The notes under the pieces: generated by a model
The model's database searches: none
The model's input: the letters and a program-made list of their open reading frames with translations, nothing else
Told to the model about the DNA's origin: nothing
Program-made: the position numbers and the translations under genes
Shown here: piece by piece, positions 13,847-29,680 of the stretch
Position numbering within the stretch: the first letter of the stretch is position 1
Layout: every line of letters starts with the position of its first letter
Origin: an uncultured Methanoregulaceae archaeon
GTDB taxonomy: Archaea > Halobacteriota > Methanomicrobia > Methanomicrobiales > Methanospirillaceae
DNA length: 32,000 nucleotides
NCBI GenBank assembly: GCA_963808285.1
Contig: CAWEFI010000013.1
Location: 187-32,186, forward strand
Reading direction: 5' to 3'

Positions 13847-14365
13847 ATGAGATTCCTGATTCCTGCAGCCACCTGTTGCGCACTCCTGCTCTGTGCGCTC
13901 TTTGTCGGGTGCACGAGCCCGACGGAGGCCGGGATCCAGCCGGTCGGGACCACCGTTACGACCCCGGTGGAGACCACCCAGACTGCCACCCCCGCTCCTA
14001 CCTTCGAACCGATCACCACGCTCCCGGCAAGCCAAGCGATCGATTTCACGGTCAACAAGGACCGCCCCACGGGCAAGATCACCCTCCAGTGGACCACTGG
14101 GCCCGGCATGAGCTCTGCCCAGGGCATCGATCTCACGGTCACCCGTGCGGATGGGACACCGGAAGATCAGCAGATTACGAACAATAACGCTCTCGGCCAG
14201 ATAAATGGTTACGACTCGATCACCCTGCCGGGCACGCTCGATGGCATGGATCATGTCCAAGTCCATATCACCATGGGCGGCAAGGTCTACCTGGTCTATG
14301 ACCAGGACGTCGGGTCCACTAACCCCTACTCTAACAAAAATTCTTCCCTCAACTCACTCTCCTGA
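13847..14365 (+). CDS. Secreted lipobox protein, hypothetical; paralogous to the outside domain of the TIR protein at 22129..23253
   Basis: The sequence aggaggaaaggg lies upstream of the ATG. The signal peptide MRFLIPAATCCALLLCALFVGC is followed by a Thr/Pro linker. The domain ...KDRPTGKITLQWTTGPGMSSAQGIDLTVTRADGT...ITLPGTLDGMDHVQVHITMGGKVYLVYDQDV aligns by eye with ...KDPVTLMVNIIFEGGPGQGLVQDNQVILTRSDGT...VKLQGTRGTDRLQVIVTMYSGKTYTIEDELI. Confidence 0.6.
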   Translation: MRFLIPAATCCALLLCALFVGCTSPTEAGIQPVGTTVTTPVETTQTATPAPTFEPITTLPASQAIDFTVNKDRPTGKITLQWTTGPGMSSAQGIDLTVTRADGTPEDQQITNNNALGQINGYDSITLPGTLDGMDHVQVHITMGGKVYLVYDQDVGSTNPYSNKNSSLNSLS

Positions 14366-14386
14366 TCCTTTTTTTACGCAGCCCGG

Positions 14387-15467
14387 CTATTTTCCTGACT
14401 GTGCCCGTCCGATCCGGCCGGCGTACTTCTGCATCCCGTACCCGAGCGCGAGCACGGCAAGGCAGGTGACGGCAAGGACGACCCACTGCATCGCTCCCGC
14501 GGTGCCGACCGAGATCCGGGCAACAAGGTTGAGCGGGTTGTACGGCAGGGCAAGGACCAGCAGCAGGAGCACGACGAGGGCAGTCGAGAAGACGAACTGC
14601 GCCGCCGTCCGCTCCCGGTAGTAGAGGGCGCAGAACGCTCCAAGGAGGATCAGGAGCAGGGTCCCGAGGGTGACGTGGAGCAGGATGAGAAGGGGGTCGG
14701 CGATCGCGATCCGGTTGGCGGAGAGGAGAAGGATCCATGCTCCGGCCTGAACCGGCACGATGACCGTGCAGGTGAGCACCTTGCCCCAGACCATCTCGGC
14801 GAACGTGACCGGGGTTGAGATGAGCGTCTCGAGCGTCCCGTGCTGGTACTCCTCGGTGATGAGGTCGATGACAAGCGCAGCAGAAAGGATCCCCGGCAGG
14901 AACACGAGGAGCGGGACCAGAAGGCCATACACAAACCCGTAGAAATCTCCGATGCCTGATGAGGCCGGGACCTGGAGCGGGACCGGCGCAACGTCGAGAC
15001 GCCCGGCCCGGACCCCCCTCAGATCCTGCTCGGTACTGCAAAAAGACCGCCTTGAGCCTCACGTCCACGACCGCTCCCTGGAGGTCGTCGGTGAGCGTGT
15101 AGAGCGTTATCTTCACCGGGTCATCGGAACCCGCTGCAGTGTCCGGGACGTAGAGGACGGCGGAGAGCCTGCGCTCCTTTAAAAGTTCGACCGCGGTCGA
15201 GAGGTCCATCCGGTGCACCCTGAGGTCGGAGGTACCCTCGAGGTACCCGAGCAGGGGCGTATCGTTTCCCGCGTACGCGATGTCGTACCGGAAATGGGAA
15301 TACCCCGAGAGCGCCGCAGGGTCGTACATGGACGTTAGCCCAACCATCAAAAAGGACGAGAAGAGCGCGATGAAGACCTGCAGCAGGACCGCAAGGAGGA
15401 TCGTCTTTTCGGATGCGAGCCCGAAGAACTCTTTTTTTGCCACCACCGCGACGTGCCGGGCCTTCAT
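14387..15467 (-). CDS. ABC-2 type (NatB-like) transporter permease; frame broken at about 15032
   Basis: The ATG at 15467 overlaps the upstream gene's stop as ATGA. MKARHVAVVAKKEFFGLASEKTILLAVLL... is followed by a large outside loop. After ...RLKAVFLQY the protein continues in another frame (EQDLRGVRAGRLDVAPVPLQVPASSGIGDFYGFVYGLLVPLLVF...ITEEYQHGTLETLISTPV...), which is ORF 14387..14932. The span is 3n+1. Confidence 0.75.
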
Positions 15468-17271
15468 TTCATCCACCCCAAAATGAAGTACAGGTTATAG
15501 CAGCAGTGGAGCACGGTCGCGGCAATAAGGCCGGGGATGAACCATTTCCTTCCCCCGACCTTGAGCGAGCAGGCAACAATGAGGATGCAGGCGAAGTGGA
15601 GCAGGAGGGGCATCCAGAGCACGCCGAGCGACAGAAAGAGGACGCTTCCGAAGACCGATTTGGTGATCTGGGCAAGCGTGGCAAAGAGGAGGAGTTTCTC
15701 GCCCACAAGAAACCCGACCGCGGTGGCGGCGCAGGCGAGCACGAGGTGCTTCCACGAGAAGAACGCGGGGTCCCGCATGAAGAACGTGTAGATGCCCAGT
15801 GCCTTTGCCATCTCCTCGATGAGTGCCGCGAGCACGAGCAGGAGCACGAGCGAGTACGGCATGGGCAGGTTGAAGAAGACAACAAGGCCCATCATCTGGG
15901 CCATGAAGACGAACGGGATCGAGAAGACCGCGAGCAGGAACAGCGCCGCGTACGGGTGCTCCTGCGGGAGGAGCCCGGAAAGGAACTCGCGGATCCGGGG
16001 GAGGAGCTTCTTTTCCGAGAAGAGGCGCTCCTCGTTAAAATTTTTTGCCGCGATGTAGAAGAGGACGGCGGCAGTCAGCCAGAAAAGTGCCGTGGCATAG
16101 ACATAGTCCGACACTGTCCACGCGGTTCCCTGGATGGTGAGCACGATCAGCGTGAGCGGTGAGACGAGGCTGATCACGTGGACGTTGGCAAAGATGGAAG
16201 GGAAAAAGAGGTACGACGTAGCGACCGTCGAGAAGAAGATGGAGATGAACGAGAGCTCCTTGAAGCTCCGGGCGAGCATCCCGATGACGAGAGCGTTTGC
16301 GAGAAAGAAGATGATGATCGGGACAAGGGGCAGGAGGACGAGCGGGGACGCCTGGATGTAGACCGTGATCCCGGTGCAGATCGCAAGCATCCCGAGGAAG
16401 TACGGGAGCATCTTTCCGATAATGATCGACGAGGTCTTCACCGGCAGGGAGAGGAGGGGCTCGCCCTGCCGCTCAATCCGCTCGTTCATGATGCTCATCA
16501 TGAAAAACTGGGAGGTGAAGTAGAGCGGGAAGATGAAGACAAAGACCAGGATGATCGAATCGAAGGGCAGGGGGGGGAGAGCTGATCCGGGATCATGAAC
16601 GGGCCCATGGCGGCTTCGCCAGGAGAGAGCACATCCGTGTACCGGGCGACCTGCGAATTCTCCTGAGACGATACAGCCAGTTCCTGCCGGATCTCGTCCT
16701 GCGTGATGCCAAGCGTGGCCGAAGGTGTCGGGACGTTCTCGACCTGGCCTGACGGGACCGGCGGTCCCCTTCCGGGGGCAACCTGCACGTACTGGCCGTT
16801 CTGGTTGGCGGAGAAGTTGAGCTCGCTCTTGACTGACTGGGTATCGATCCAGAGCGGGAACGCGGCAAAGAGGTCGCTTTCGTTCGCATAGACGCTGTTT
16901 TTGTACTGCGCATAGTCCCGTTCGAGAGCGTTTTCCCCCGACTTCCCCTTCCCGGTCGGGCTTGCGGAGACGACCCCCTTGCTGATGACGAGATCGTACG
17001 CCCCATTGTCGGCGGCGAGCACATGGTCGCTCTCCTGGTAAACCGTGAACCGTGCATCGGGCGTAAAGAGAGCGGCGACCTTCGGGTCGTCGACCCCGAT
17101 CCGGTACATCCCGTCCTGGATGTGCAGGCCGCTCTCTGCGGCAAAACCGGTGACAAGGATAAGGAGGACGAAGAGGACGATCGCGACCGGCAGGAGGTTA
17201 CGCGACATGACCGAGAAGGTCTTTTTCACTTCCCAGCGTGCGATGGTCGCGATATCCCTGCCTGCACTCAA
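15464..17271 (-). CDS. Fusion protein: NatB-like ABC-2 permease plus a C-terminal PrsW-like intramembrane protease domain; frame broken at the G8 run 16570-16577
   Basis: A probable TTG start at 17271 gives (M)SAGRDIATIARWEVKKTFSVMSRNLLPVAIVLFVLLIL. About 190 aa of outside loop follow. After ...FMIPDQLSPP the protein continues in ORF 15464..16501 (LPFDSIILVFVFIFPLYFTSQFFMMSIMNERIERQGEPLLSLPV...). The last roughly 150 aa carry EEMAK, FLVGE and HCCYN, matching my memory of the PrsW motifs EExxK, FxxxE and HxxxN/D. Confidence 0.7.
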
Positions 17272-17440
17272 GGCTGCATCTCCGGAAAAACACCGTGGAT
17301 AGCCAATAGGTGTGGGTACCGGGGTCAAATACTGATCGGTGCTGACACGCCGGGGACCGCCGGCCTGCACCTATCCTAACGTATATGTCCCCCACCCCAC
17401 CACAGTACAGCAAAGGCCCGGCCCTTCCGGAGCACCTGCC

Positions 17441-18331
17441 GTGATCACCGCAGACCACCTCTCCAAGCGCTACGATGGATTTACCGCTCTTGACGACGTG
17501 AGCTTCTCGTTTCCCGGCGCCGGGATCTTCGGGATCGTGGGGCACAACGGGGCGGGCAAGACCACGCTTTTAAAGATTATCTCGGGCCTGATCACCCCCA
17601 CGTCCGGCGACCTTTCCGTGAACGGGATCGATGTCGTCCGCGACCCGGTGACGCTCAAGGAGACGCTGGGCTACCTTCCCGAGGAGTCCCGGCTCTACGA
17701 GACGATGACCGCGGAGGACTACCTCGCGTTCTTCGGCGAGATCTACGGGATCGACAAGGAAGAGATCACCCTCCGGACCCGCCAACTCTTTGCTGCCCTC
17801 TCGCTTGAGACCGGCGGGAAGAAACTGGGCGAGTTCAGTAAGGGCATGAAACGCAAGGCCGCGATCGCCCGCTCCCTCATCCACGACCCGAAATTCCTGG
17901 TCTACGATGAGCCGACAAGCGGCCTCGACCCGATGACCTCCCGGTTCATCGCCGGGTACTTGCGCAGGCTCAAGGGAGAGGGCCGGACCATCGTGCTCTC
18001 GGCCCACAACCTGTTCCAGGTCGAGGCGATCTGCGACCGGGTGATGATCCTCCGGCGCGGGAAAGTGGTGGCGCTGGGCACCATGGACGAGCTCCGCGAG
18101 CAGTTCGGCTCGATCACGTACACGATCTGGTTTGCCCACGCCTATCCGTCACGCATCGACCGGCACACGGTACCCTACAGGCAGGATGACCGGGGACTTG
18201 CCTGCGATGCCGGGGACTTGGCGGCCTTAAACGCGTGCTCTGCCGCGATCGCGGCCGCAGGCGGGAGGGTGGAGCGGATCGAGTCCCGGTACCCGTCGCT
18301 CGAAGAGATGCTCGTTGCGATCGGCGAGTAA
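17441..18331 (+). CDS. ABC transporter ATP-binding protein (NatA-like)
   Basis: A GTG at 17441 gives (M)ITADHLSKRYDGFTALDDVSF. The Walker A motif GHNGAGKTT, the signature FSKGMKRK (LSGGQ-type position), the Walker B motif FLVYDEPTSGLD and the H-loop LSAHN are all present, followed by an extra C-terminal domain of about 75 aa. The gene is divergent from the two permease genes. Confidence 0.9.
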   Translation: MITADHLSKRYDGFTALDDVSFSFPGAGIFGIVGHNGAGKTTLLKIISGLITPTSGDLSVNGIDVVRDPVTLKETLGYLPEESRLYETMTAEDYLAFFGEIYGIDKEEITLRTRQLFAALSLETGGKKLGEFSKGMKRKAAIARSLIHDPKFLVYDEPTSGLDPMTSRFIAGYLRRLKGEGRTIVLSAHNLFQVEAICDRVMILRRGKVVALGTMDELREQFGSITYTIWFAHAYPSRIDRHTVPYRQDDRGLACDAGDLAALNACSAAIAAAGGRVERIESRYPSLEEMLVAIGE

Positions 18332-18666: not shown

Positions 18667-20214
18667 TCACGCGATCCTTACCGCCGCGCCGCTGTTTCGG
18701 GCGGAGGTGATTATCGTGGTTCCTCCCCCGATTTCCTGCATGAACGCCTTCGCTGCCCGTTCAATCTCCTGCATCCCCGTATCGGTTATGGCATATACGG
18801 TCGGGCCAAACGAACTCATGCCGGCCCCGGCTGCCCCGGCCGCACGCATCGTGTCAAGTAGACCAGTGACCTCCCGGGGCTGGATGGCGAGTTCAACCTT
18901 TTTGAAACCAAGCTCCTGAATGGCATTGACCGAGGTGCCGAACAAGTCGAGATCCCGTTCCGCGAGCCCGGGAAGCATCCGCATCAGGACCTCATGGCAG
19001 AGTGTCCTGACCTCGTCAACCGGCAGCGGGCAGCAGGTACGGAAAATCTCTTGCTCCCTCATTCCGCTCGCCCCTTCCGGGAGTGCCGGGATCGCAAGCA
19101 GGATGCGCCAGTCGCCGGGAAAATCGTGATGGATAAGCACCGGCGGCGGCTGTACGCCCTTTGACGCGGATGATGGCGCAAAGCCGGTTTTTTCGCAGCC
19201 CGGCCCGAACCGATGCCCGCCGTCAACGATGAAACCCCCATGCTCAAACGCGGCAGTACCGATACCGGAGGTCCCGCCGCGCCCGACCATCCGTGCGAGT
19301 GCTCCCGTGGTCAGGGCTTTTCCGTACAGCTCGCAGCAGGCCCGGGCCGTAGCAAGCGCTAGCTGGGAACCACCCCCGAGGCCGATGTGGGTCGGGAAGT
19401 GTTCCCGCACCGTGAGCGACACGCTCCCCCCCGCATGGATCCGGGCGAGCACGCTTTTTGCACTATCCCGGACCAGTGCCGCAGTCCGGCTGTCACAGCC
19501 ATGGACTTCAAGCGAAGGGCTTGCCTGTGCCTCGAGAAGGATCGAGGGAGCGTCAAGGGCAATCCCGATCCCGCCGTCAACTCTGCCAAGGCCGCCGTTC
19601 ATATCGAGCAGGGTAATATGGATGCGCGACGGTGTCCCTACAATCACCCTGCGCTCGTCAAGGAATTTGTTGTACGGGAACTGCTCTTCAATGAAGATGA
19701 GCGGCTCCCCGCCATGGATAATCTGGTACTGCCGTATCAGCAGCGGTTCGTTTTTGCAGATCGAAAAGATCCCGCTCACGTCATCCTTCGCGGAGGTTAC
19801 CCGGGCGGTGAGGATCTCCCTCCGGGCCTCGATATGGTGGCGCTCTATGATCCTGCCAATAGGTATGTCGGCCTTCATGAGGTCGTCCCGGAACTCCGTT
19901 GCAAGCCGGGCAACAGGGGTCTGCGATGTCGCGTAGACGAGCACGTCCCCGGTTGTAGCGTCCAGGAGTTCCACGATCCGGTGATTCACCGCATCGCCCT
20001 GGGCAATGTTGAGGCGTTCTGCTGCGAGGGTATCGGCTTTAACGATTTCCTGTTCGCGGGTCCGGACCGATACCGGGTGACCGGTGATCGACTCCAGCAG
20101 CTGCGTGACCGACCCGTCAGTACCCAGAAGAATTTTCTGCACGGGAGAGAGCCTGCCCACATACTCTTCAATCTCTTTGAGACGGTGTGCGATATCCATC
20201 CACACAACCTCCAT
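18667..20214 (-). CDS. mptG: Fusion of a chorismate-lyase-like (DUF98) domain and beta-ribofuranosyl(amino/hydroxy)benzene 5'-phosphate synthase (GHMP-kinase fold)
   Basis: ATG candidates lie at 20214 and 20199; the track start at 20250 is a TTG. The N-terminal roughly 190 aa contain LSPVQKILLGTDGSVTQLLESITGHPVSV, the hallmark of the DUF98/UbiC-like lyase fold. From RRVIVGTPSRIHITLLDMNGGLGRVDGGIGIAL onward the sequence matches RFAP synthase, including the GHMP motif GLGGGSQLALA. Confidence 0.85.
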   Translation of the reverse strand: MEVVWMDIAHRLKEIEEYVGRLSPVQKILLGTDGSVTQLLESITGHPVSVRTREQEIVKADTLAAERLNIAQGDAVNHRIVELLDATTGDVLVYATSQTPVARLATEFRDDLMKADIPIGRIIERHHIEARREILTARVTSAKDDVSGIFSICKNEPLLIRQYQIIHGGEPLIFIEEQFPYNKFLDERRVIVGTPSRIHITLLDMNGGLGRVDGGIGIALDAPSILLEAQASPSLEVHGCDSRTAALVRDSAKSVLARIHAGGSVSLTVREHFPTHIGLGGGSQLALATARACCELYGKALTTGALARMVGRGGTSGIGTAAFEHGGFIVDGGHRFGPGCEKTGFAPSSASKGVQPPPVLIHHDFPGDWRILLAIPALPEGASGMREQEIFRTCCPLPVDEVRTLCHEVLMRMLPGLAERDLDLFGTSVNAIQELGFKKVELAIQPREVTGLLDTMRAAGAAGAGMSSFGPTVYAITDTGMQEIERAAKAFMQEIGGGTTIITSARNSGAAVRIA

Positions 20215-20269
20215 GCCGGAAATATTAAGGTTGCTGATCCAGCCGAACAATCATCGAAAAAAACGGCAT

Positions 20270-20650
20270 TCACCCTTTCCGGGGGCCTCGGTGAACACCC
20301 TTCCGGTTTTTTGGGGGGTACAACGGCTGTGGCACCTGTGTGGTGATCGTATTGATGGCATCTGTCGTGAGCCGGCCCTTGAGGCCGATCACGTCGCCTG
20401 ACCGGATCACGTTGACCTTTGCGGTGAGGACAAAACTTTCGCTGAAGAGATCGAGGCCCCCCTCGCTAAAATCGTCAAGCCCGAGCGGGATGCTGGGGGC
20501 ACCGGACGGGGGTTTGCTGCTGACCGGGCAGACGCAGACATCCCCGTTTTCCCGTGCCGAAACGACCACGGCGGGCCGGGTCTTTGTGTCGCGCCGCTCA
20601 TCAAAGGGAACCGGGGCAAGGATCACATCACCCCGCACAAAACGTCCCAT
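20270..20650 (-). CDS. PemK/MazF-like toxin-fold protein, with no recognisable antitoxin gene
   Basis: The ATG at 20650 gives MGRFVRGDVILAPVPFDERRDTKTRPAVVVSARENGDVCVCPVSSKPPSGAPSIPL...SFVLTAKVNVIRSGDVIGLKGRLT. This fits the PemK pattern (RGDI..v.f......K.RPavVvS......v.v.PiTS....... ...S.v....v.ti....i....G.l). It ends 20-55 nt upstream of the RFAP synthase start. Confidence 0.6.
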   Translation of the reverse strand: MGRFVRGDVILAPVPFDERRDTKTRPAVVVSARENGDVCVCPVSSKPPSGAPSIPLGLDDFSEGGLDLFSESFVLTAKVNVIRSGDVIGLKGRLTTDAINTITTQVPQPLYPPKNRKGVHRGPRKG

Positions 20651-20814
20651 ACCCGGATAATCCGGCTTTTCAAGAGCATAAGGCAATTGATCAGTTTTTC
20701 AGTGTGGGCTCCTTTTTCCGGTCGCACAACACAGGTAAGACGCGCCACACGGCCATGAGAAACCCTTTACATCCGGGCGGTGGATGATCGCATCAGTACA
20801 CGGTGGTGAAAACA

Positions 20815-22128: not shown

Positions 22129-23253
22129 TCACCTCAGGTTACCACCGGGTATCAATTCATCCTCAATAGTGTACGTTTTTCCCGAGTACATGGTGACGAT
22201 GACCTGAAGCCGATCAGTTCCGCGGGTACCCTGCAGTTTCACCTCAGATCCCATGTGGTTGAAGTCAAGTTTTCCCGTGGTGACTGTGCCATCGGATCTC
22301 GTCAGGATCACCTGGTTATCCTGCACGAGTCCCTGCCCGGGACCCCCTTCGAATATGATATTTACCATCAGGGTGACAGGATCCTTATCAGCGACGACAA
22401 TGAGCTGGGTAGTATTCGGCAGCGCCTGTGTCGGGCCAGCTGTGAGGACTACCGTATTTATCGGGGCATTTGAACTCCGGTAATCCACCGCGGTCGTGGG
22501 GATCGGGGCCGGTGCCCCAATACCCCAACCGCCGTGGATGCCTACGGGGTTGAGTAACTGGGTGGGGATAATCGGGAGGACGAGGTACAGTGCAGCGAGG
22601 ATGAGGATCACAATAACCGCACCGATAATCCTCCTCCTCTTGACCCGAGAGGATGGCGGGGTTGCCGCAACGGATTGTTGTGTCGGGGTCCGTCCGGCCT
22701 CTGGCGGCGGAGGAGATATTGGATTCAAAGACACCGGTGCCCCGCATTTTTCACAGAACCTGGCGATTGGTGAGAGGGGGGTGCTGCATACAGCGCAGAC
22801 TACCATGTCCTCGCGCGGTAAAAGAATATCCCCGATGATCCCGACAAGTTCATCGATATGCTTTTCAAGGGGAGGCGTAAAGGCGTCCAGCCAGTTCGGG
22901 ACGCTGATCAGGTACTCCATCGATTTCGAAGGCTGGATATCTTCAATGCGGAACGGAACGATAATGCGCCCCTTATTCACGGCATTCGTCAATTCCCTGA
23001 GCACGTGAGGGGAATCGTTTGAATGGGATGAAAAGATGAGCACCATCGCACCGCTCCTTTCGATCCCTTCGATAATTGCCTTCGGAAATTCCGTGCCCGG
23101 CGGCGCATCCCGGGGGGCAATCCAGCACCTGAATTCATGGGATTCCAGCGCTGCGCACACGGCATCGGCTACTCGCTTATCCGGCTTGGCATAGCTGATG
23201 AAGACATCGTAGAGGATACGACGGGACCCGGAAAATTCATCAGAATCTGGCAT
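22129..23253 (-). CDS. TIR-domain membrane protein: cytoplasmic TIR, zinc ribbon, single TM, outside beta-rich domain
   Basis: Starts at the ATG at 23253 (the track start at 23298 is a GTG). The TIR signature is YDVFISYAKPDKRVADAVCAALESHEFRCWIAPRDAPPGTEFPKAIIEGIERSGAMVLIFSSHSNDSPHVLRELTNAV, with the Glu codon at 22993-22995. The ribbon is CAVC-x10-CEKC. RVKRRR is followed by IIGAVIVILILAALYLVLPII (22567-22629). The C-terminal roughly 145 aa are paralogous to the protein at 13847..14365. Confidence 0.8.
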   Translation of the reverse strand: MPDSDEFSGSRRILYDVFISYAKPDKRVADAVCAALESHEFRCWIAPRDAPPGTEFPKAIIEGIERSGAMVLIFSSHSNDSPHVLRELTNAVNKGRIIVPFRIEDIQPSKSMEYLISVPNWLDAFTPPLEKHIDELVGIIGDILLPREDMVVCAVCSTPLSPIARFCEKCGAPVSLNPISPPPPEAGRTPTQQSVAATPPSSRVKRRRIIGAVIVILILAALYLVLPIIPTQLLNPVGIHGGWGIGAPAPIPTTAVDYRSSNAPINTVVLTAGPTQALPNTTQLIVVADKDPVTLMVNIIFEGGPGQGLVQDNQVILTRSDGTVTTGKLDFNHMGSEVKLQGTRGTDRLQVIVTMYSGKTYTIEDELIPGGNLR

Positions 23254-23335
23254 GCACTGTCCGAACCCGTAACATGTGGATCCGGAATCTCCATTCACTG
23301 TTTCTTGGTCATTTCCGGACTATTATCTTTTACGT

Positions 23336-24430
23336 TCACCCGAAACGCACAATTTTAAGTTGAACCTTTGCAAGGATCCCCGGCAGCGTCCGTATGGCGT
23401 TACGGTCTTTCTCTTTCTGCTGCTCAGGGAGCGGTTCCCATGGCATCAGGCAATCATGCGTCCTGAGTTTTTCGTTCGTCTCAGGGCCCTGCACCCAACC
23501 TCTTTTCAGGTGCTCGTCCATCCAGCGCTCGTGTTCCATCTGTGCGAGCATTTCAATCTCGGCCGGCGTGAATTCAAACAATGTTTCATTGGCATCGGTG
23601 GAAATCCCGATTGCGCAGTGGATCACCTGCAGTTTTTTACAGATGTCATCCGCTTGTTTGAGGTTTGCTTCCTGCAAATGATGGGAGAGCTCGTTCCAGG
23701 GGCGCATGGACGGTTTTGTTTGCGGGGTCAACCCAGCATTTTGCTGCTGTGCGCTGTATTCTTCGTGGATTGCGCGTGCCACCAGTTCGTGCGTCCCTCT
23801 GACGCCAACGTCATAATATTTTTTCAACATCATCCTGATCTTTTCTGAATCAATCCAGCCTTTATCGATCTGAGCTACAATCCGATCTATCTCTTTTCCC
23901 TGCCTGATGATCTTGTGGGAGACTGCTTTGTCATCCAGCATATCGCAGAGCCCGATAATAATCGCAACAGGGTTGCGAAGGTGATCCCCCAGTGTCGCGA
24001 ACTGTTCGATATTTTTCTCAATCTGTTCGTATGCATCCTGTCTCAACCGGTTCATCTCGACCTGGTCGGTTACGTCGAGGGCAAAGATCATAACCCGGGA
24101 ATTTTTCTCTTTCCTGTCCTTGCAGGGGATGATGCAAAATTTCAGGCTCTTTGCGCCCGAATGAGGCGTATCAATCCTGCGGATGATCCCGTTCTTTGTC
24201 TCGCCGGATGAGATGGCGAGGCGGATATCGTGGAAAAAATCCTCCCTGTCATCCGGAAACAGATCGCCGATTGTTCGCTTACCGGAAGGGGTTCCGGCAG
24301 GTGCCAGGAGATCCGTGCATGATCTGTTTTCCCAGAATATGGTGCCGCCGGCATCAGTAAAAAAAACCAGCACCGGCAGCGAATTTAAAACCTGTTCGAA
24401 ATCGACATTTTCGTCTTCTGATGGTTTCAT
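23336..24430 (-). CDS. PAS sensor / DHp-like helix with degenerate H-box / C-terminal RyR-domain protein (no HATPase domain)
   Basis: Starts at the ATG at 24430 (the track start at 24574 is a TTG). A TATA-like atatacgatatta lies about 60-70 nt upstream. The PAS domain is LPVLVFFTDAGGTIFWENRSCTDLL...KFCIIPCKD...VMIFALDVTDQVEM. The helix carries FATLGDHLRNPVAIIIG. The RyR-like repeats are LVARAIHEEYS...RPWNELSHHLQEANLKQADDICKKL and EIEMLAQMEHERWMDEHLKRGWVQGPETNEKLRTHDCLMPWEPLPEQQKEKDRNAIRTLPGIL. Confidence 0.75.
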   Translation of the reverse strand: MKPSEDENVDFEQVLNSLPVLVFFTDAGGTIFWENRSCTDLLAPAGTPSGKRTIGDLFPDDREDFFHDIRLAISSGETKNGIIRRIDTPHSGAKSLKFCIIPCKDRKEKNSRVMIFALDVTDQVEMNRLRQDAYEQIEKNIEQFATLGDHLRNPVAIIIGLCDMLDDKAVSHKIIRQGKEIDRIVAQIDKGWIDSEKIRMMLKKYYDVGVRGTHELVARAIHEEYSAQQQNAGLTPQTKPSMRPWNELSHHLQEANLKQADDICKKLQVIHCAIGISTDANETLFEFTPAEIEMLAQMEHERWMDEHLKRGWVQGPETNEKLRTHDCLMPWEPLPEQQKEKDRNAIRTLPGILAKVQLKIVRFG

Positions 24431-24834
24431 ACCCTGATTCGCACCTGCTATCGTAATTATTGGTACTATGCAGATGTCCTGGTTAATATCGTATATGCAT
24501 GACAAAACCCGGACCTGGTCCTTCGACTGATGATCAAGATCGGCCGGAATATTTTTCCTGGCCACAATCAACAAGGGTTACGTTGTTTACGAGGGGTGAC
24601 CACAATTTCACCACGTTAAAATTCTCGAGATAACTGCAAGTGCACCAGAACTAAAAAACCACTGCAGTTGCCTAAATCGTAAGCCTCAGGTATAGCCCCT
24701 ACCACTATGCATAATTTTAGTTTGAAATTTGGGGGGTGAGATCCCGTATCACGCACGCTTAACCCGGGACCGGGTATCGACGCTATTTTACCATACCTGT
24801 GCCTGCTTTCCGGCGCACGCGATCAATAGGAGAA

Positions 24835-25127: not shown

Positions 25128-25466
25128 ATGCCACGCTGCGATATCTGCGGGAAAAATGTCTCGCTCCCGTTCCACTGCCAGTACTGCGGAAAAAACTTCT
25201 GCGATGAGCACCGGCTGCCGCCCAACCATGCATGCGCCGGCCTTGCGGAATGGAAAAAGACCCCGGCGCCCGGTGTGGGCATCCGGTACGGGCCGGGCGG
25301 TGCTACTCCGTACGGGGGCGGATATGCAACGGTACCACCCGGTAAAAAACCCGGCCGGCTTTCGGGCGGGTGCATCCCTTTCCTGAAAATCGCCGTAACG
25401 GTTATCGTGATCATCTTCATTGTACTTCTCTTCCTGGGCCTGAGCGGGCATCTGCTCTCCGGGTAA
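25128..25466 (+). CDS. AN1-type zinc-finger protein with a C-terminal membrane anchor
   Basis: MPRCDICGKNVSLPFHCQYCGKNFCDEHRLPPNHAC fits the AN1 pattern Cx2Cx9-12Cx2Cx4Cx2Hx5HxC. A Gly/Pro-rich linker and the hydrophobic helix FLKIAVTVIVIIFIVLLFLGL follow. Confidence 0.8.
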   Translation: MPRCDICGKNVSLPFHCQYCGKNFCDEHRLPPNHACAGLAEWKKTPAPGVGIRYGPGGATPYGGGYATVPPGKKPGRLSGGCIPFLKIAVTVIVIIFIVLLFLGLSGHLLSG

Positions 25467-25543
25467 AAAGGACCGGCCCCGGGACCTCCCGGTTCTGCCT
25501 CCCAAACCTTCAAAGAAGATCAAGAGCCAACCCTGTATCCGGT

Positions 25544-26287
25544 ATGCCAGCCGCACATTCCCGCACATTCCGGGATGGAAAAACGCTTGCCGGGGAACTC
25601 CTTGCCGCGATGCACCGGGTCGGGGTGCTCGGGGTCACGTACCCTGAGAATTACTATGAGGAGCTCATCGCGAAGTACGAAAAGGGTGGCGTCCCCTACC
25701 CACACATTCTTTCGATCCTTGGCGAGCCGCGGATCAGGGGGCATTTTTTTTATCCCCGTATGCTCCGGCACACCGGCCCGTTTCTCGATTACGGCTGCGG
25801 GACCGGCGACAATATCCGGCAGCTCTTCCGTGACGGTTTTTCCCGGGAACTGATCACCGCTTTTGATCTCACGTGGGAGAGCATCAGCCTCGGGTTCGCC
25901 CTGTACCGTGACGAGGATGCGATCCGGGATCTCTTCGTGGTGAACGATTCGTTCCCGTTTGGGGAAGAGACATTTGATACGATCTATTCCGGGTCCGTTA
26001 TCCACGTGATATCAGATACGGATGAACTCGAGAACTACCTGAAAAATGCTGCGAAAGCCCTCAGGCCCGGCGGGGTATTCTTTGGCTCAACGCTCGGGAT
26101 CGAGGATGGCGGATCCTGCGAACCGGATGAGAGAGGGCCTCCGCGGGTGATGCCCCGGACGGAGCTGATCCGGCACCTGGTAGCCGCCGGGTTTGTACAC
26201 CCGGATATGGTAAAGCGGCTCCATGAGGCGCACACGCCGGGGGACCAAAAGTGCGTGTTTGAGTTTTGTACAAAAAAAGAAGGATGA
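25544..26287 (+). CDS. Class I SAM-dependent methyltransferase
   Basis: Starts at the ATG at 25544. Motif I is FLDYGCGTGDNIRQL, followed by FDLTWESI, FDTIYSGSVIHV and LRPGGVFFGST. Codons 3-9 overlap a 10-bp tandem duplication. Confidence 0.8.
   Translation: MPAAHSRTFRDGKTLAGELLAAMHRVGVLGVTYPENYYEELIAKYEKGGVPYPHILSILGEPRIRGHFFYPRMLRHTGPFLDYGCGTGDNIRQLFRDGFSRELITAFDLTWESISLGFALYRDEDAIRDLFVVNDSFPFGEETFDTIYSGSVIHVISDTDELENYLKNAAKALRPGGVFFGSTLGIEDGGSCEPDERGPPRVMPRTELIRHLVAAGFVHPDMVKRLHEAHTPGDQKCVFEFCTKKEG
25551..25570. repeat. Exact tandem duplication of a 10-mer (ccgcacattc x2)
   Basis: Read directly: 25551-25560 is identical to 25561-25570. Confidence 0.9.
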
Positions 26288-28101: not shown

Positions 28102-28210
28102 ACGTAGCCTAATAATGTGGCCGGTACAGCCGAATAAATGTTTGGGAACCCGGCTCCCCGGATCCCCAGTGAATCCCTTTATACGTGGGCGTGGCACATC
28201 TTCTTCTAAC

Positions 28211-29680
28211 ATGCCTGACACCGCCGCGTTTGAGTCAGCAGCCCCGATAAAATACTGCATCTTCGGGTGCGGGACAAACGGGTACAACATCATCCTCGAG
28301 CTCGCGAAGGAAAACGAGCGCGTGATCGTCGTTGACCGCGACGAGTCGCGCGTCCGTCACCTCCGCGACCAGAAGTATGACGCGTACGTGCGGGATATCA
28401 CCTCATCCGAACTGCTCGCCGGACTCCCGGCATTTGAGATAGCCTTCGTGATGACCGGTGATGCGGACGCCAACCTCGCCGCCGTCCTTGCCGTAAAAAA
28501 ACGGTACCCGTCCGTGCAGGTGATCGCACGGGCGGTCGACCCGGTGACCGGCGGCAAACTTACGGCGGCCGGTGCAGACCTCGTCATATACCCCCAGGAA
28601 GTGGTCGCTAAGACCGCGGTCTTCCAGATCAAAAAGCAGCATGCGAGCAGGATCTCGCAGAAACTTTTTTCGCTCCTTGCCGGCTGGGACGGCATCCTTG
28701 GGATCATCACCCACAAGAACCCGGACCCGGACGCGATCGCGAGCGCCATGGCCCTCGCCGAGATCGCGCGCCACGCGAACTCAAAGACGCTCACCACACG
28801 GATCTTCTACGAAGGCAACATCGGACACCAGGAGAACCGGACGTTTGTAAACCTCCTCGACATCAAGATGGAGCACCTGACGCCCGATGCGCTCCAGAAG
28901 TGCTCCTATATCGCCCTCGTAGACTGCTCGGGCCCGGGTGCCAACAACGACATACCACCCCAGACAAAGATCCAGATCATCATCGACCATCACAAGGATG
29001 GCAACCACCTGTCCGGGCAGGGTGCATTCACCGATATCCGGCCCGGTATCGGGGCGACCGCGAGCATCATGACCCAGTACCTGCAGGAGCTCGATATCCC
29101 GGTGGACAAAAGGGTGGCGACCGCGCTCCTCTACGGCATCAGGACCGACACAAAGGAGTTCAAGAGGAACGTCACCCCGCAGGATCTCGGCAACGCCGGC
29201 TTCCTCCTCCCGCTCACGGACGCGGATCTCCTCGACAAGATCATGTCGCCGTCCATGTCGCAGGAAACGATCGATGTGATTGGAAAAGCGATCCAGAACC
29301 GGAAGATCCAGAGCGGCTACCTCTTCTCGAACGTCGGCTACGTGATGAACCGGGACGCACTGCCGCAGGCAGCCGACCTGCTCATCACGCTCGAAGGGGT
29401 AAATACTGCCCTCGTGTATGGGATCACTGATACCGCGATCGTGATCTCGGCCCGGAACCGGGACATACGGCTGCATATCGGGAATGCACTTGCCGAGGCA
29501 TTCGGGGACATGGGAGATGCGGGAGGCCATCCGAACATGGCAGCGGCAAACCTCCCGCTCCACTATTTCGGCAATGTATCCGACAAGGTAGGACTCCTGA
29601 GCATCACCATCGAGCCAATCCTCCAGAGGTTCAAGAACCTCGTCGGCATCGAGAACGAGGAAAATAAAAACGGGGAATGA
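28211..29680 (+). CDS. TrkA-N (NAD-binding) domain fused to a DHH/DHHA1 phosphoesterase
   Basis: Starts at the ATG at 28211, with a TATA-like ctttatac about 30 nt upstream. The Rossmann motif is CIFGCGTNGYNI...VVDRD. The DHH motifs are ITHKNPDPDAIAS, LVDCS and IIIDHH. The DHHA1 motif is GGHPNMAAA. Confidence 0.85.
   Translation: MPDTAAFESAAPIKYCIFGCGTNGYNIILELAKENERVIVVDRDESRVRHLRDQKYDAYVRDITSSELLAGLPAFEIAFVMTGDADANLAAVLAVKKRYPSVQVIARAVDPVTGGKLTAAGADLVIYPQEVVAKTAVFQIKKQHASRISQKLFSLLAGWDGILGIITHKNPDPDAIASAMALAEIARHANSKTLTTRIFYEGNIGHQENRTFVNLLDIKMEHLTPDALQKCSYIALVDCSGPGANNDIPPQTKIQIIIDHHKDGNHLSGQGAFTDIRPGIGATASIMTQYLQELDIPVDKRVATALLYGIRTDTKEFKRNVTPQDLGNAGFLLPLTDADLLDKIMSPSMSQETIDVIGKAIQNRKIQSGYLFSNVGYVMNRDALPQAADLLITLEGVNTALVYGITDTAIVISARNRDIRLHIGNALAEAFGDMGDAGGHPNMAAANLPLHYFGNVSDKVGLLSITIEPILQRFKNLVGIENEENKNGE

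Follow-up and report, generated by a model that had tools for sequence, protein, structure and literature searches.

A membrane-anchored TIR protein with a conserved ectodomain

The window, a 32,000-nt stretch of a contig from an uncultured Methanoregulaceae archaeon, carries two adjacent genes on its minus strand, on which all features given below with coordinates lie. The downstream gene (22129–23253, stop codon included) encodes a 374-aa protein with a TIR domain, a zinc ribbon, a transmembrane (TM) helix and a beta-sandwich. The upstream gene (23336–24574, frame open from 24574) encodes a PAS domain, DHp (HisKA-like) helices and tandem RyR repeats, as identified with Pfam. Between them lies an 82-nt spacer (23254–23335) in which we read an A/T-rich box (taaaagataata). 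The frame around the TIR gene is open across 22129–23298, and Met1 is invariant in all 27 aligned homologues, so the ATG at 23253, which the original prediction had taken as the start, is the conserved one. A look-up of the exact protein sequence gave no match. More than 115 full-length homologues were found at 43–98% identity, and all that are named come from Methanoregula or Methanomicrobiales; the window itself encodes an archaeal TFIIB and an aIF5B-type IF-2, consistent with the methanogen host proposed earlier. The product is a single-pass membrane protein with a TIR domain bearing a putative catalytic Glu inside and a conserved FN3-like sandwich outside.

The cytoplasmic TIR domain (residues 15–144, 22822–23211) was delimited with Pfam, AlphaFold2 (AF2) and Foldseek. 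Pfam TIR_2 (PF13676) matched residues 17–135 (E 2.7e-22, 79.9 bits against a cut-off of 28), and PF01582 also matched the N terminus (E 4.6e-7). The AF2 model had pLDDT values of 80–94 across the domain, and Foldseek paired it with the TIR structures of SARM1, PdTIR, BtpA, RPS4, RUN1 and AbTir (E 1e-6 to 1e-4), bearing out the assignment of the N terminus as TIR. Used as a profile against the PDB, the family alignment matched the TIR core only. Within the family, mean pairwise identity of the domain is 77%. SARM1, plant TNL TIRs and AbTir/BtpA/PdTIR share both the fold and the Glu of helix alphaC with the window TIR, but identity to these enzymatic TIRs is only ~20% and their fusion partners differ.

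The putative catalytic residue is Glu87 (codon GAA, 22993–22995), in helix alphaC. HMMER aligned the segment SPHVLRELT Glu-on-Glu with SKWCLMELA of flax L7 (PDB 7vu8), and likewise with the Glu of SEWSKFEM in oyster TIR-STING. Glu87 is invariant (27/27 aligned homologues), as is the surrounding motif FSSxxNxSPHVxRE throughout the family, so a Glu does occupy the catalytic position, as had been predicted. The Glu of the SxWxxxE motif is catalytic in plant TIRs and SARM1 (PMC7075850). By this alignment, the window TIR domain is putatively of the NAD-cleaving enzyme type.

Next comes a CxxC-x10-CxxC zinc ribbon (CAVC-x10-CEKC, residues 153–170, 22744–22797). The ribbon is real, with 24.0 bits to Pfam Zn_Ribbon_1 (slightly below the cut-off of 25) and 20 bits to DZR, but the element singled out in the original prediction is not conserved: it is missing from 11 of the 27 aligned homologues and is therefore a dispensable, variable accessory. 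It is followed by a basic cluster, RVKRRR (residues 203–208), and the TM helix (residues 209–229; together 22567–22647), defined by hydropathy. This is the sole strongly hydrophobic segment, with a KD19 maximum of 2.96, and the N-terminal 190 residues never rise above 1.41. Across the family, one to five K/R residues occur in the 15 positions before the helix and almost always none in the 15 after it, with one exception (locus L020), in line with the earlier placement of the TIR domain inside the cell. A predicted topology with TIR in and C-terminal domain (CTD) out is well supported by the positive-inside rule and by comparison of relatives. Short relatives of the CTD bear lipobox signal peptides of the lipoprotein type, which indicates that the domain works outside the membrane. 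A single TM helix separates ectodomain from cytoplasmic TIR, with the N terminus inside.

The extracytoplasmic part (residues 255–370, 22144–22491) comprises a linker and an FN3/Ig-like beta-sandwich in an AF2 model of the CTD alone, with core pLDDT above 90. The folded sandwich spans residues ~268–368 (pLDDT mostly >90) and is preceded by ~40 disordered residues. The beta-rich outside domain of the original prediction thus stands, but its size is ~100–115 aa and not ~145. Structural matches were generic FN3/Ig folds only (E ~5e-3, TM-score 0.4–0.5), and a named domain was rejected because Pfam, NCBIfam and the PDB gave nothing past such sandwiches. Mean identity of the CTD is 63%, with 13 invariant residues (T275, K290, G303, G304, G306, R319, S320, D321, Q341, G342, R344, T346 and D347), a sign of strong purifying selection.

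In all 300 representative relatives, the CTD is C-terminal. Uncharacterised Methanomicrobiales proteins with a zinc ribbon-linker-TM-CTD layout, together with CTD lipoproteins, share the ribbon, the Pro-rich linker, the TM helix and the sandwich with the window protein but, unlike it, have no TIR domain. The zinc ribbon of the TIR protein is inherited from this scaffold family, and the protein as a whole looks like a TIR domain grafted onto the scaffold. The TIR subfamily to which it belongs is single-pass and membrane-anchored across bacteria and archaea, and relatives carry bona fide ligand-binding modules as ectodomains (Peripla_BP_6, PPC, DUF1080, Stig1), which agrees with the proposed logic of an outside sensor joined through the membrane to an inside TIR. 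Some archaeal paralogues (the L023–L042 type) even have true Toll-like receptor polarity, with signal anchor, ectodomain, TM helix and C-terminal TIR, which strengthens that logic. The window ectodomain would, by this comparison, sense an external cue.

A co-inherited PAS-DHp-RyR partner gene

Homologues of the partner are 359–378 aa long, from which we place its likely start at ATG 24430 (Met49), giving a protein of 364 aa (23336–24430). Its PAS domain covers residues 58–172 of the 412-aa open reading frame (24059–24403; PAS_4 E 2.3e-5, PAS E 4.1e-5). DHp/HisKA-like dimerisation helices follow (23825–24022), with a HisKA score of 26.9 bits that equals the cut-off exactly, and no HATPase_c comes after them. 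In the H-box GDHLRNP, D197, R200, N201 and P202 are kept in 47/47 homologues and His198 in 36/47, the remaining 11 having Q, N, S or R. A histidine kinase was therefore rejected, given the missing HATPase_c and the unconserved His198. The partner has no recognisable effector domain and the DHp His is replaced in those 11 homologues, so nothing in it points to a particular output, which counts against a signalling module.

The tandem RyR repeats (23345–23803) were recognised by Pfam RyR (PF02026, E 5e-16, 59.2 bits against a cut-off of 27.4) and by phmmer against the PDB, where the partner matched RyR Repeat12 constructs (E 8e-19). Repeat 1 is degenerate (AIHEEY...PW) and repeat 2 canonical. 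The pocket residues of repeat 2 are H348 (23531–23533), W351 (23522–23524), H373 (23456–23458) and K389/D390 (23405–23410); H348, W351 and H373 are kept in 47/47 homologues each and D390 in 46/47, so that the pocket is invariant but for one sequence. Two 2026 preprints describe phage RyR-domain proteins that bind or cleave 2'cADPR/3'cADPR and cADPR via an H-W-H-(K)D set, and both noted an unexplained likeness to animal ryanodine receptors (PMC13232231; 10.64898/2026.06.04.730250). The spacing of the window residues (3/22/17) is identical to that of the ligand/catalytic residues H75/W78/H100/D117 of RyDEP (PMC13232231) and H129/W132/H154/D171 of RyR Tad (10.64898/2026.06.04.730250). In animal channels (RyR3), Repeat12 binds ATP/adenine ligands (PMC13232231; 10.64898/2026.06.04.730250), and the ligand of the window RyR therefore need not be a TIR product.

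The two genes travel together. A PAS-DHp-RyR gene lies directly upstream of the TIR gene in ~20 genome loci (L001-5, 7-9, 11-17, 19, 20, 22, 25, 27 and 35), with L006 the one true exception. In the reverse direction, a metagenome scan with a 7-sequence RyR alignment as query gave 41 PAS-DHp-RyR loci, among them 33 with a TIR gene downstream, 4 cut by contig ends and 4 exceptions, hence 33 of 37 evaluable loci. Elsewhere the gap between the genes is ~15–290 nt, on the same strand. When the window was compared with 21 related loci, the TIR gene and its partner were the only genes in common, and the distance matrices of TIR, RyR and CTD correlate (rho 0.67–0.71). The TIR and PAS-DHp-RyR genes are thus co-inherited as a conserved two-gene module. 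The original prediction missed this module, the conserved RyR pocket of its PAS-DHp-RyR member, and the spread through bacteria and archaea of the membrane-anchored TIR subfamily, which is paired elsewhere with RCK/K+-channel-RyR, RelA/SpoT-SLOG-RyR, STAND/AAA-RyR or SLATT-like proteins; its reading of the TIR protein was incomplete rather than wrong, and the evidence supports the two-gene module as the functional unit.

TIR-RyR pairs elsewhere and the proposed pathway

TIR genes stand next to RyR genes in at least three unrelated architectures and in several phyla. We found TPR-TIR with a K+-channel-RCK-RyR protein (L042); TM-ectodomain-TM-TIR with RCK-RyR (L023-34, L131, L136, L146, L163); TIR-TM-Peripla_BP_6 with RyR and RCK-RyR (L133); TIR-TM-DUF1080 with RCK-RyR in Chloroflexi (L045/58/64); TIR with AAA-RyR (L046); and TIR near RelA/SpoT-SLOG-RyR (L037). 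Bacterial members of the TIR subfamily adjoin SLATT-like proteins, SLATT being a known CBASS/Thoeris effector fold. Not every RCK-RyR protein is a K+ channel: only L042 and L152 combine a Pfam pore with a TVGYG filter, most of the others have two N-terminal hydrophobic segments and no recognisable filter, and some are soluble, so that 'channel' fits a subset. RyR and TIR are also not obligate partners outside the window's family, as ~12 of 20 evaluable RCK-RyR loci have no nearby TIR and, in bacteria, the majority of the TIR subfamily lacks an adjacent RyR gene.

The sister modules fuse RyR to domains with an evident output (K+-channel/RCK, RelA/SpoT-SLOG, STAND/AAA, nucleotide cyclase), and we therefore take RyR to be the receptor for what the TIR makes. 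TIR domains can serve as pure adaptors, and the window TIR could on that ground lack enzymatic activity and act as a protein-protein scaffold, like the TIRs of animal TLR/IL-1R signalling, its RyR neighbour having no nucleotide meaning. We regard this as highly improbable, because it accounts neither for the invariant Glu and its motif, nor for the invariant RyR ligand pocket, nor for the recurrence of TIR-RyR adjacency across phyla.

The product of the window TIR gene is probably one half, sensor and signal generator in one, of a conserved TIR-to-RyR nucleotide signalling module that resembles Thoeris but has a transmembrane sensor, and whose enzymology, ligand and output we infer. An extracytoplasmic event at the ectodomain (ligand binding, an envelope change or clustering) would bring the cytoplasmic TIR domains together. 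To our knowledge, no characterised TIR enzyme is active unless it self-associates. The TIR would then turn NAD+ into a nucleotide derived from ADP-ribose, most probably a cADPR isomer, and RyR repeat 2 would either bind or hydrolyse this nucleotide in its H348/W351/H373/D390 pocket. The PAS-DHp dimer may relay the signal to some target or terminate it, as the phage glycosidase RyDEP does, and PAS may add a second, intracellular input.

The TIR could instead be an executioner that brings on dormancy or abortive infection by depleting NAD+, like TIR-SAVED, SPARTA and TIR-STING, with the partner as a safety catch that sequesters or hydrolyses products of leaky activity or keeps the TIR switched off. 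The partner has no effector domain, which would leave the TIR as the only enzyme of the module; the His/Asp dyad of the RyDEP glycosidase is present in its RyR pocket; and the best, though weak, PADLOC match of the TIR is a SAVED-TIR effector model. We nevertheless consider an executioner unlikely. The fusion of RyR to effectors (channel, RelA/SpoT, cyclase, STAND) fits a receptor better than an antidote, the SLATT-like effectors beside bacterial relatives are typical of signalling TIRs, and it would be odd for a suicide enzyme to be core, syntenic and vertically inherited and to carry an extracellular domain.

A TIR-to-RyR signalling module finds a close counterpart in Thoeris, likewise a two-gene system in which a catalytic-Glu TIR sits beside a protein with a domain for TIR-made ADPR derivatives, whose binding is here predicted from sequence. 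Upstream of the TIR gene, in the same orientation and 82 nt away, is the gene of the partner, whose predicted nucleotide pocket is conserved. The Yirmiya et al. bioRxiv preprint, in its main text and part of its supplement, sorts Thoeris into types I–XI, with SLATT-like effectors in type VII, as in the neighbours of bacterial TIR-subfamily members, and channel-like effectors in type X, as in the window's sister modules; in the same portion of that source, an RyR-domain partner is absent from the 29 predicted effector types (10.64898/2025.12.03.692087). ThsB of Thoeris is soluble, whereas the window TIR is of the TIR_2 type and membrane-anchored with an ectodomain. Thoeris effectors carry a cell-killing or growth-arresting domain; in the window partner, PAS, DHp and RyR are the only domains recognised and none is toxic, while sister modules have K+-channel/RCK, RelA/SpoT, STAND/AAA, cyclase or SLATT-like domains. 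The window TIR matched no curated Thoeris model (NCBIfam ThcB4, 16.4 bits against a cut-off of 220). PADLOC gave weak domain-level matches for the TIR protein (ThsB1, E 6.5e-4, TIR core only) and none for the RyR partner. The architecture, which the original prediction did not recognise as a described system, also occurs beyond this archaeon.

RyDEP (PMC13232231) and RyR Tad (10.64898/2026.06.04.730250) share with the partner the PF02026 fold and the H-x2-W-x21-H-x16-D set with its preceding Lys, and a dimeric organisation is expected in common. They are small viral anti-defence sponges or glycosidases, whereas the window RyR is a C-terminal tandem on a cellular PAS-DHp protein. Being cellular and encoded beside a TIR gene, it belongs to the host's part of the pathway.

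Animal Toll-like/IL-1 receptors also cross the membrane once, joining a cytoplasmic TIR to an ectodomain that is Ig/FN3-like or of another kind. They are N-out/C-in, as are the L023–L042 type paralogues, whereas the window protein is reversed (N-in); the latter also keeps the enzyme-type Glu, and no adaptor TIRs are evident. Beyond a generic beta-sandwich, the window ectodomain has no homology to LRR/Ig receptor ectodomains. The Toll-like receptor likeness is one of logic, not of demonstrated descent. By analogy, the eukaryotic cADPR-ryanodine receptor axis may have its two elements, a cADPR-like producer and a Repeat12-type domain, in the window module too. In sister loci L042 and L152, the Repeat12-type domain sits on an ion channel with RCK, as in the RyR axis, but these prokaryotic channels are 2-TM and K+-channel-like rather than RyR channels, and the window RyR protein is soluble.

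Tentatively, and with less confidence than in the module itself, the window protein could represent, in archaea, a widespread class of prokaryotic transmembrane TIR receptors that has yet to be described, in which an external cue is turned into a cADPR-type messenger for cellular RyR readers, among them the RCK/K+-channel-RyR fusions of the sister loci. The outside-sensor, inside-TIR receptor logic and the link from cADPR to RyR in animal calcium signalling would then both have prokaryotic antecedents, and the phage RyR sponges and glycosidases would be captured copies of a host domain. Our literature search found no cellular TIR-RyR operon and no prokaryotic transmembrane TIR receptor, which does not prove their absence.

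TIR-derived nucleotides are a cross-kingdom signalling language. A conserved cellular TIR-RyR pair would supply the missing host-side context for viral RyR-type domains, especially where RyR sits on RCK/K+-channel proteins, and the RyR domain would, if this holds, be a native receptor of TIR products. We know of no proof that cADPR binds animal R12 directly; whether cADPR acts through RyR Repeat12 is an old question that small prokaryotic proteins would make testable. The characterised prokaryotic TIR systems known to us all sense intracellular events, and coupling of a TIR enzyme to an extracellular domain would provide the first case of Toll-like, outside-in TIR signalling in prokaryotes.

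Genomic neighbourhood and role of the module

In four Methanoregula genomes, the pair is flanked by TFIIB on one side and AIRS/DUF460/Rio2 on the other, in a region of ribosomal and RNA-processing genes. Other Methanoregula conserve this housekeeping neighbourhood, which the window genome has in rearranged form. Scans of IMG/VR viral contigs, each with no more than two peptide patterns, gave no relatives. A defence-island or mobile-element context was rejected on the strength of the housekeeping synteny and the lack of relatives in these two-pattern viral scans, and in this respect the pair differs from Thoeris, with its defence-island or mobile-element location. The missing defence island, curated Thoeris match and viral-contig relatives count against a TIR-to-RyR signalling module.

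The module might serve antiviral defence or physiological envelope/contact signalling. Housekeeping synteny and a non-variable ectodomain make us lean towards a domesticated or physiological sensor. TIR signalling may, by the same synteny, serve non-immune physiology in methanogens.

Information might also flow the other way, with the PAS-DHp-RyR dimer acting as a cytoplasmic metabolic or redox sensor that binds ATP/ADP/NAD-type adenine nucleotides and regulates the membrane TIR by contact, the ectodomain serving as an anchor. PAS domains are classic intracellular sensors, the Repeat12 of RyR3 takes ATP/adenine ligands (PMC13232231; 10.64898/2026.06.04.730250), the CTD is a common Methanomicrobiales envelope module with no known ligand, and oxidative-stress genes surround the window pair. 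We think such a reversed flow quite improbable, however, since that gene context is not kept in other genomes, 63% mean identity and 13 invariant residues exceed what an anchor would need, and relatives carry real ligand-binding ectodomains.

Two further observations concern the surroundings of the pair. The oxidative-stress genes in the window encode a nitroreductase, an FMN reductase and a rubrerythrin. A transposase and extra TIR genes are present in some of the loci.

The TIR protein, its topology and its family

The TIR gene is open from 22129 to 23298 on the reverse strand and encodes 374 aa from the ATG at 23253. This ATG, the one chosen in the original prediction, is the family-wide start, since all 27 aligned homologues share Met1. 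The TIR domain proposed for the N-terminus is borne out by a Pfam TIR_2 match at residues 17–135 (E 2.7e-22; 79.9 bits against a cut-off of 28), by PF01582 (TIR), and by structure. In an AlphaFold2 model based on the family alignment, the TIR domain reaches pLDDT 80–94, and Foldseek matches the model to the TIR structures SARM1, RPS4, PdTIR, BtpA, RUN1 and AbTir (E 1e-6 to 1e-4). In plant TIRs and SARM1, the catalytic residue is the motif glutamate. Glu87 (GAA, 22993–22995, reverse strand), previously placed at this position, indeed falls on it in the HMMER alignment of the window's 'SHSNDSPHVLRELTNAV' with flax L7 'SGYADSKWCLMELAEIV' (7vu8) and oyster TIR-STING '...SEWSKFEM', and it is invariant across the 27-homologue alignment. 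A purely scaffolding role for the TIR is, beside this invariant glutamate, very improbable.

The predicted zinc ribbon, CAVC-x10-CEKC, is present at residues 153–170 (Pfam 24.0 bits, just under the threshold of 25) but missing from 11 of the 27 homologues, and is therefore an accessory rather than a defining feature of the family. The RVKRRR cluster (203–208) directly precedes residues 209–229, the sole strongly hydrophobic segment by hydropathy, as had been read from the sequence. The C-terminus is a beta-sandwich with core pLDDT >90 (AlphaFold2); the beta-rich fold was correctly anticipated, but the folded part spans ~100–115 aa, not ~145. Apart from this length, the earlier description of the TIR protein is accurate.

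The proposed orientation, TIR inside and C-terminus outside, agrees with the charge distribution: across the family, the 15 residues N-terminal to the TM helix hold 1–5 K/R and the 15 C-terminal to it almost always none (single exception, L020; L-numbers denote surveyed genome or metagenome loci). Stronger evidence comes from relatives of the C-terminal domain (CTD). A CTD-only phmmer search of 1.84 billion representative proteins returned 300 relatives (111 at E <= 1e-10), and the CTD is C-terminal in all of them. Of the 90 that were scanned, 42 have the layout double zinc ribbon–linker–TM–CTD, and none carries a TIR domain. Short forms (~150 aa) carry a lipoprotein-type signal peptide, a lipobox Cys and a Pro/Thr linker before the CTD. 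These two forms argue that the CTD is an extracytoplasmic module, common in Methanomicrobiales, and the window protein has the look of a zinc ribbon–linker–TM–CTD scaffold with a TIR grafted on. The CTD fold, an FN3/Ig-like sandwich, is generic, and no specific structural relative was found in the PDB. One Methanoregulaceae genome encodes both a TIR-less double-zinc-ribbon–TM–CTD protein (L021:12508–13533, reverse strand) and a TIR–Zn ribbon–TM–Stig1 protein with a Cys-rich ectodomain (L021:7980–9635), which shows modular swapping of both ends.

Searching 5.8 billion proteins yielded >115 full-length clusters of the TIR–TM–CTD family (43–98% identity, 350–440 aa). All named homologues come from Methanoregula, Methanoregulaceae or Methanomicrobiales, and their annotation goes no further than 'TIR domain-containing protein'. 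Conservation in the family alignment is uneven, with mean pairwise identities of 77% in the TIR domain, 63% in the CTD (13 invariant residues) and ~30% in the linker and TM helix.

The PAS-DHp-RyR partner and its predicted ligand pocket

Directly upstream, on the same strand, lies a gene (23336–24574; likely start ATG 24430) for a protein with PAS, HisKA-like DHp and RyR domains (Pfam RyR 59.2 bits against a cut-off of 27.4). It also precedes the TIR homologue in another Methanoregula genome with a different distal context. Across 80 genome loci retrieved via the TIR protein and examined by tblastn and phmmer, the partner is directly upstream of all full-length TIR–TM–CTD genes except three, one a true exception (L006) and two cut by contig ends. 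Conversely, when metagenome contigs were scanned with the RyR module, a TIR gene lay downstream in 33 of 41 PAS-DHp-RyR loci; four were cut by contig ends, and two of the four exceptions hold another TIR + RCK-RyR pair 3 kb away. The window shares only these two genes with 21 related loci, and the distance matrices of TIR, RyR and CTD correlate (rho 0.67–0.71), as expected under co-inheritance.

Four other Methanoregula genomes carry the pair within one conserved housekeeping block, where it is preceded by S8e–CobW–SRP19–RNase P p30–Gar1–TFIIB and followed by a 147-aa ORF–AIRS–DUF460–Rio2–TtuA–(K+ channel)–NAD synthase–GPI. In the window, the TFIIB-to-IF-2 part of this block is at 1.4–9.3 kb and the pair ~20 kb away, between a methyltransferase gene and a zf-AN1 gene. 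The TIR gene does not belong to a defence island; extra paralogues of it sometimes adjoin the pair, as does one transposase. A pattern scan of 2.9 million viral contigs found no relatives within its limits. The extra paralogues lack TM and CTD (L007:6650–7381, L012:6689–7810, L003:3671–4549, L106, L108, L109, L120) and sit between the RyR and TIR–TM–CTD genes, as a three-gene variant, or close by; a DDE transposase separates the extra TIR gene from the pair in L003/L004. A few genes from the pair, ~6–8 kb downstream, the conserved block of L165, L166, L167 and L003 also holds NAD synthase (NadE) and a TrkA-type K+ channel. This closeness is possibly coincidental, but the pair may consume NAD+.

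Pfam finds no ATPase domain in the partner, and 11 of 47 PAS-DHp-RyR proteins have another residue in place of the DHp 'phospho-acceptor' His198; the partner is therefore not a histidine kinase. Two 2026 preprints describe phage RyR-domain proteins that act on nucleotides produced by TIRs, either binding or cleaving them. RyDEP is a 2'cADPR/3'cADPR glycosidase (ligand and catalytic residues H75, W78, H100 and D117) whose homologues are nanomolar sponges (PMC13232231), and 'RyR Tad' binds 3'cADPR (Kd 43 nM), 2'cADPR and canonical cADPR through H129/W132, H154 and K170/D171 (10.64898/2026.06.04.730250). Neither mentions archaea or host TIR–RyR operons. The window partner has a tandem RyR unit with a degenerate repeat 1; repeat 2 carries H348, W351, H373 and K389/D390, with a spacing (3, 22, 17) identical to that of both phage proteins. 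H348, W351 and H373 are each present in 47/47 non-identical PAS-DHp-RyR proteins and D390 in 46/47, so that the predicted ligand pocket is intact.

The analysis shows how the TIR protein is built, gives evidence on its topology, and establishes that Glu87 is invariant and that a RyR partner with an intact pocket is co-inherited. Beyond this, we consider it probable that a TIR-made, ADPR-derived nucleotide is read or cleaved by the partner RyR. An external event on the ectodomain would drive TIR self-association, the TIR would produce the nucleotide, the RyR pocket would bind or hydrolyse it, and the PAS-DHp dimer would relay or end the signal. The same two proteins could instead be an NAD+-depleting TIR executioner and its RyR safety catch, which we regard as unlikely.

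The messenger reading likens the module to Thoeris, which also works by TIR nucleotide signalling. Unlike Thoeris, the pair matches no curated Thoeris or PADLOC family and lies outside defence islands, its partner lacks a toxic effector domain, and its TIR is membrane-anchored. A systematic Thoeris survey of December 2025 lists 29 predicted effector types, as well as a type X effector that is an ion channel and works with a ThsB-type TIR; neither its text nor the supplement parts consulted mention RyR, PF02026 or TrkA (10.64898/2025.12.03.692087). In the literature searched, neither cellular TIR–RyR operons nor prokaryotic transmembrane TIR receptors are described, which is not proof of absence; the original view, too, did not recognise this architecture as a described system. 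The module would be a variation on TIR nucleotide signalling, with an unusually interesting link to the cADPR–ryanodine receptor question.

The wider TIR subfamily and other TIR–RyR pairings

The window TIR belongs to a subfamily with the motifs FSSxxNxSPH and PFRxEDxxP, whose members, 50–73% identical to it, occur in several bacterial phyla and other archaeal architectures. A single TM helix follows 20–100 residues past the TIR in 62 of 69 subfamily proteins with an N-terminal TIR; C-terminal parts include PPC, choline-binding, DUF1080/3-keto-disaccharide hydrolase, Stig1, DUF4189 and the Peripla_BP_6 ligand-binding domain. A second archaeal type (signal anchor, ~230 aa, TM, C-terminal TIR) has true TLR polarity.

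Adjacency of TIR and RyR recurs in unrelated architectures and is not universal. TPR-TIR precedes a K+-channel (Ion_trans_2, TVGYG)–RCK–RyR protein (L042); TM–ectodomain–TM–TIR precedes RCK-RyR (L023–L034, L131, L136, L146, L163); TIR–TM–Peripla_BP_6 precedes RyR and RCK-RyR (L133); Chloroflexi TIR–TM–DUF1080 is convergent with RCK-RyR (L045/58/64); and TIR occurs with AAA-RyR (L046), near RelA/SpoT–SLOG–RyR (L037) and adjoining RyR–TPR-S–cyclase (L083). No TIR gene is nearby in ~12 of 20 evaluable RCK-RyR loci.

The RCK-RyR family is large (~600 aa; two N-terminal hydrophobic segments, TrkA_N/RCK, C-terminal tandem RyR; L042:8926–10782, L152:1605–3338, also L045, L058, L064, L126–L162). A Pfam Ion_trans_2 pore and TVGYG filter are found in two members (L042, L152), a TIR gene adjoins ~40% of evaluable loci, and in several loci two or three RyR paralogues are neighbours. 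Among the loci surveyed, L133:1504–6456 shows most clearly an arrangement of the type 'extracellular ligand-binding domain -> TIR -> RyR', with genes for TIR–TM–Peripla_BP_6–DUF1080 (814 aa), a stand-alone RyR (154 aa) and RCK-RyR (615 aa).

RyR is also fused to RelA/SpoT + TPR + SLOG (LSDAT_prok), TPR-S + adenylate/guanylate cyclase and STAND/AAA NTPases (L037:4633–7653, L154:624–3215, L083:9447–11774, L046:2675–5329, L147:2–2446, L138:1548–4430), and thus appears to be a portable sensor that many different output domains carry. For the window pair, a reversed flow of signal, from a PAS/RyR metabolic sensor to the TIR, is in our view quite unlikely.

Bacterial subfamily members mostly have other partners, notably SLATT_1/DUF4231-like proteins in 14 loci. 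SLATT is a known effector fold of CBASS and type VII Thoeris, and this company supports a signal-generating role for the TIR subfamily. At these loci (L063:6156–7949, L032, L048, L050, L051, L054, L057, L059–L061, L065, L068, L070, L080), a membrane-anchored TIR from Dadabacteria, Deltaproteobacteria or Planctomycetaceae is flanked by one or two ~595-aa SLATT_1/DUF4231-like genes, a pairing that resembles Thoeris type VII with a transmembrane TIR.

Other genes in the window

A PemK/MazF-type toxin gene (20270–20686, reverse strand; Pfam E 3e-8) lies 1.4 kb downstream of the TIR gene, with no obvious antitoxin ORF called beside it. Three consecutive ORFs (14349–17370, reverse strand; 375, 345 and 290 aa), none with a Pfam match, adjoin an ABC-transporter ATPase (17339–18331). 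At 25128–26287 (forward strand), the zf-AN1 (25128–25466) and methyltransferase (25370–26287) ORFs overlap in different frames; they are called as one 377-aa gene in the 98%-identical contig L001 and as three fragments in L002, and the discrepancy is a frameshift or assembly difference. Conversely, the window's 527-aa GHMP-kinase fusion gene (18667–20250) is split in L001. A TrkA_N (RCK)–DHH–DHHA1 protein, a nucleotide phosphoesterase with an RCK domain, is encoded at 28115–29680 (forward strand), and its gene is also found beside tRNA-Lys in L001.
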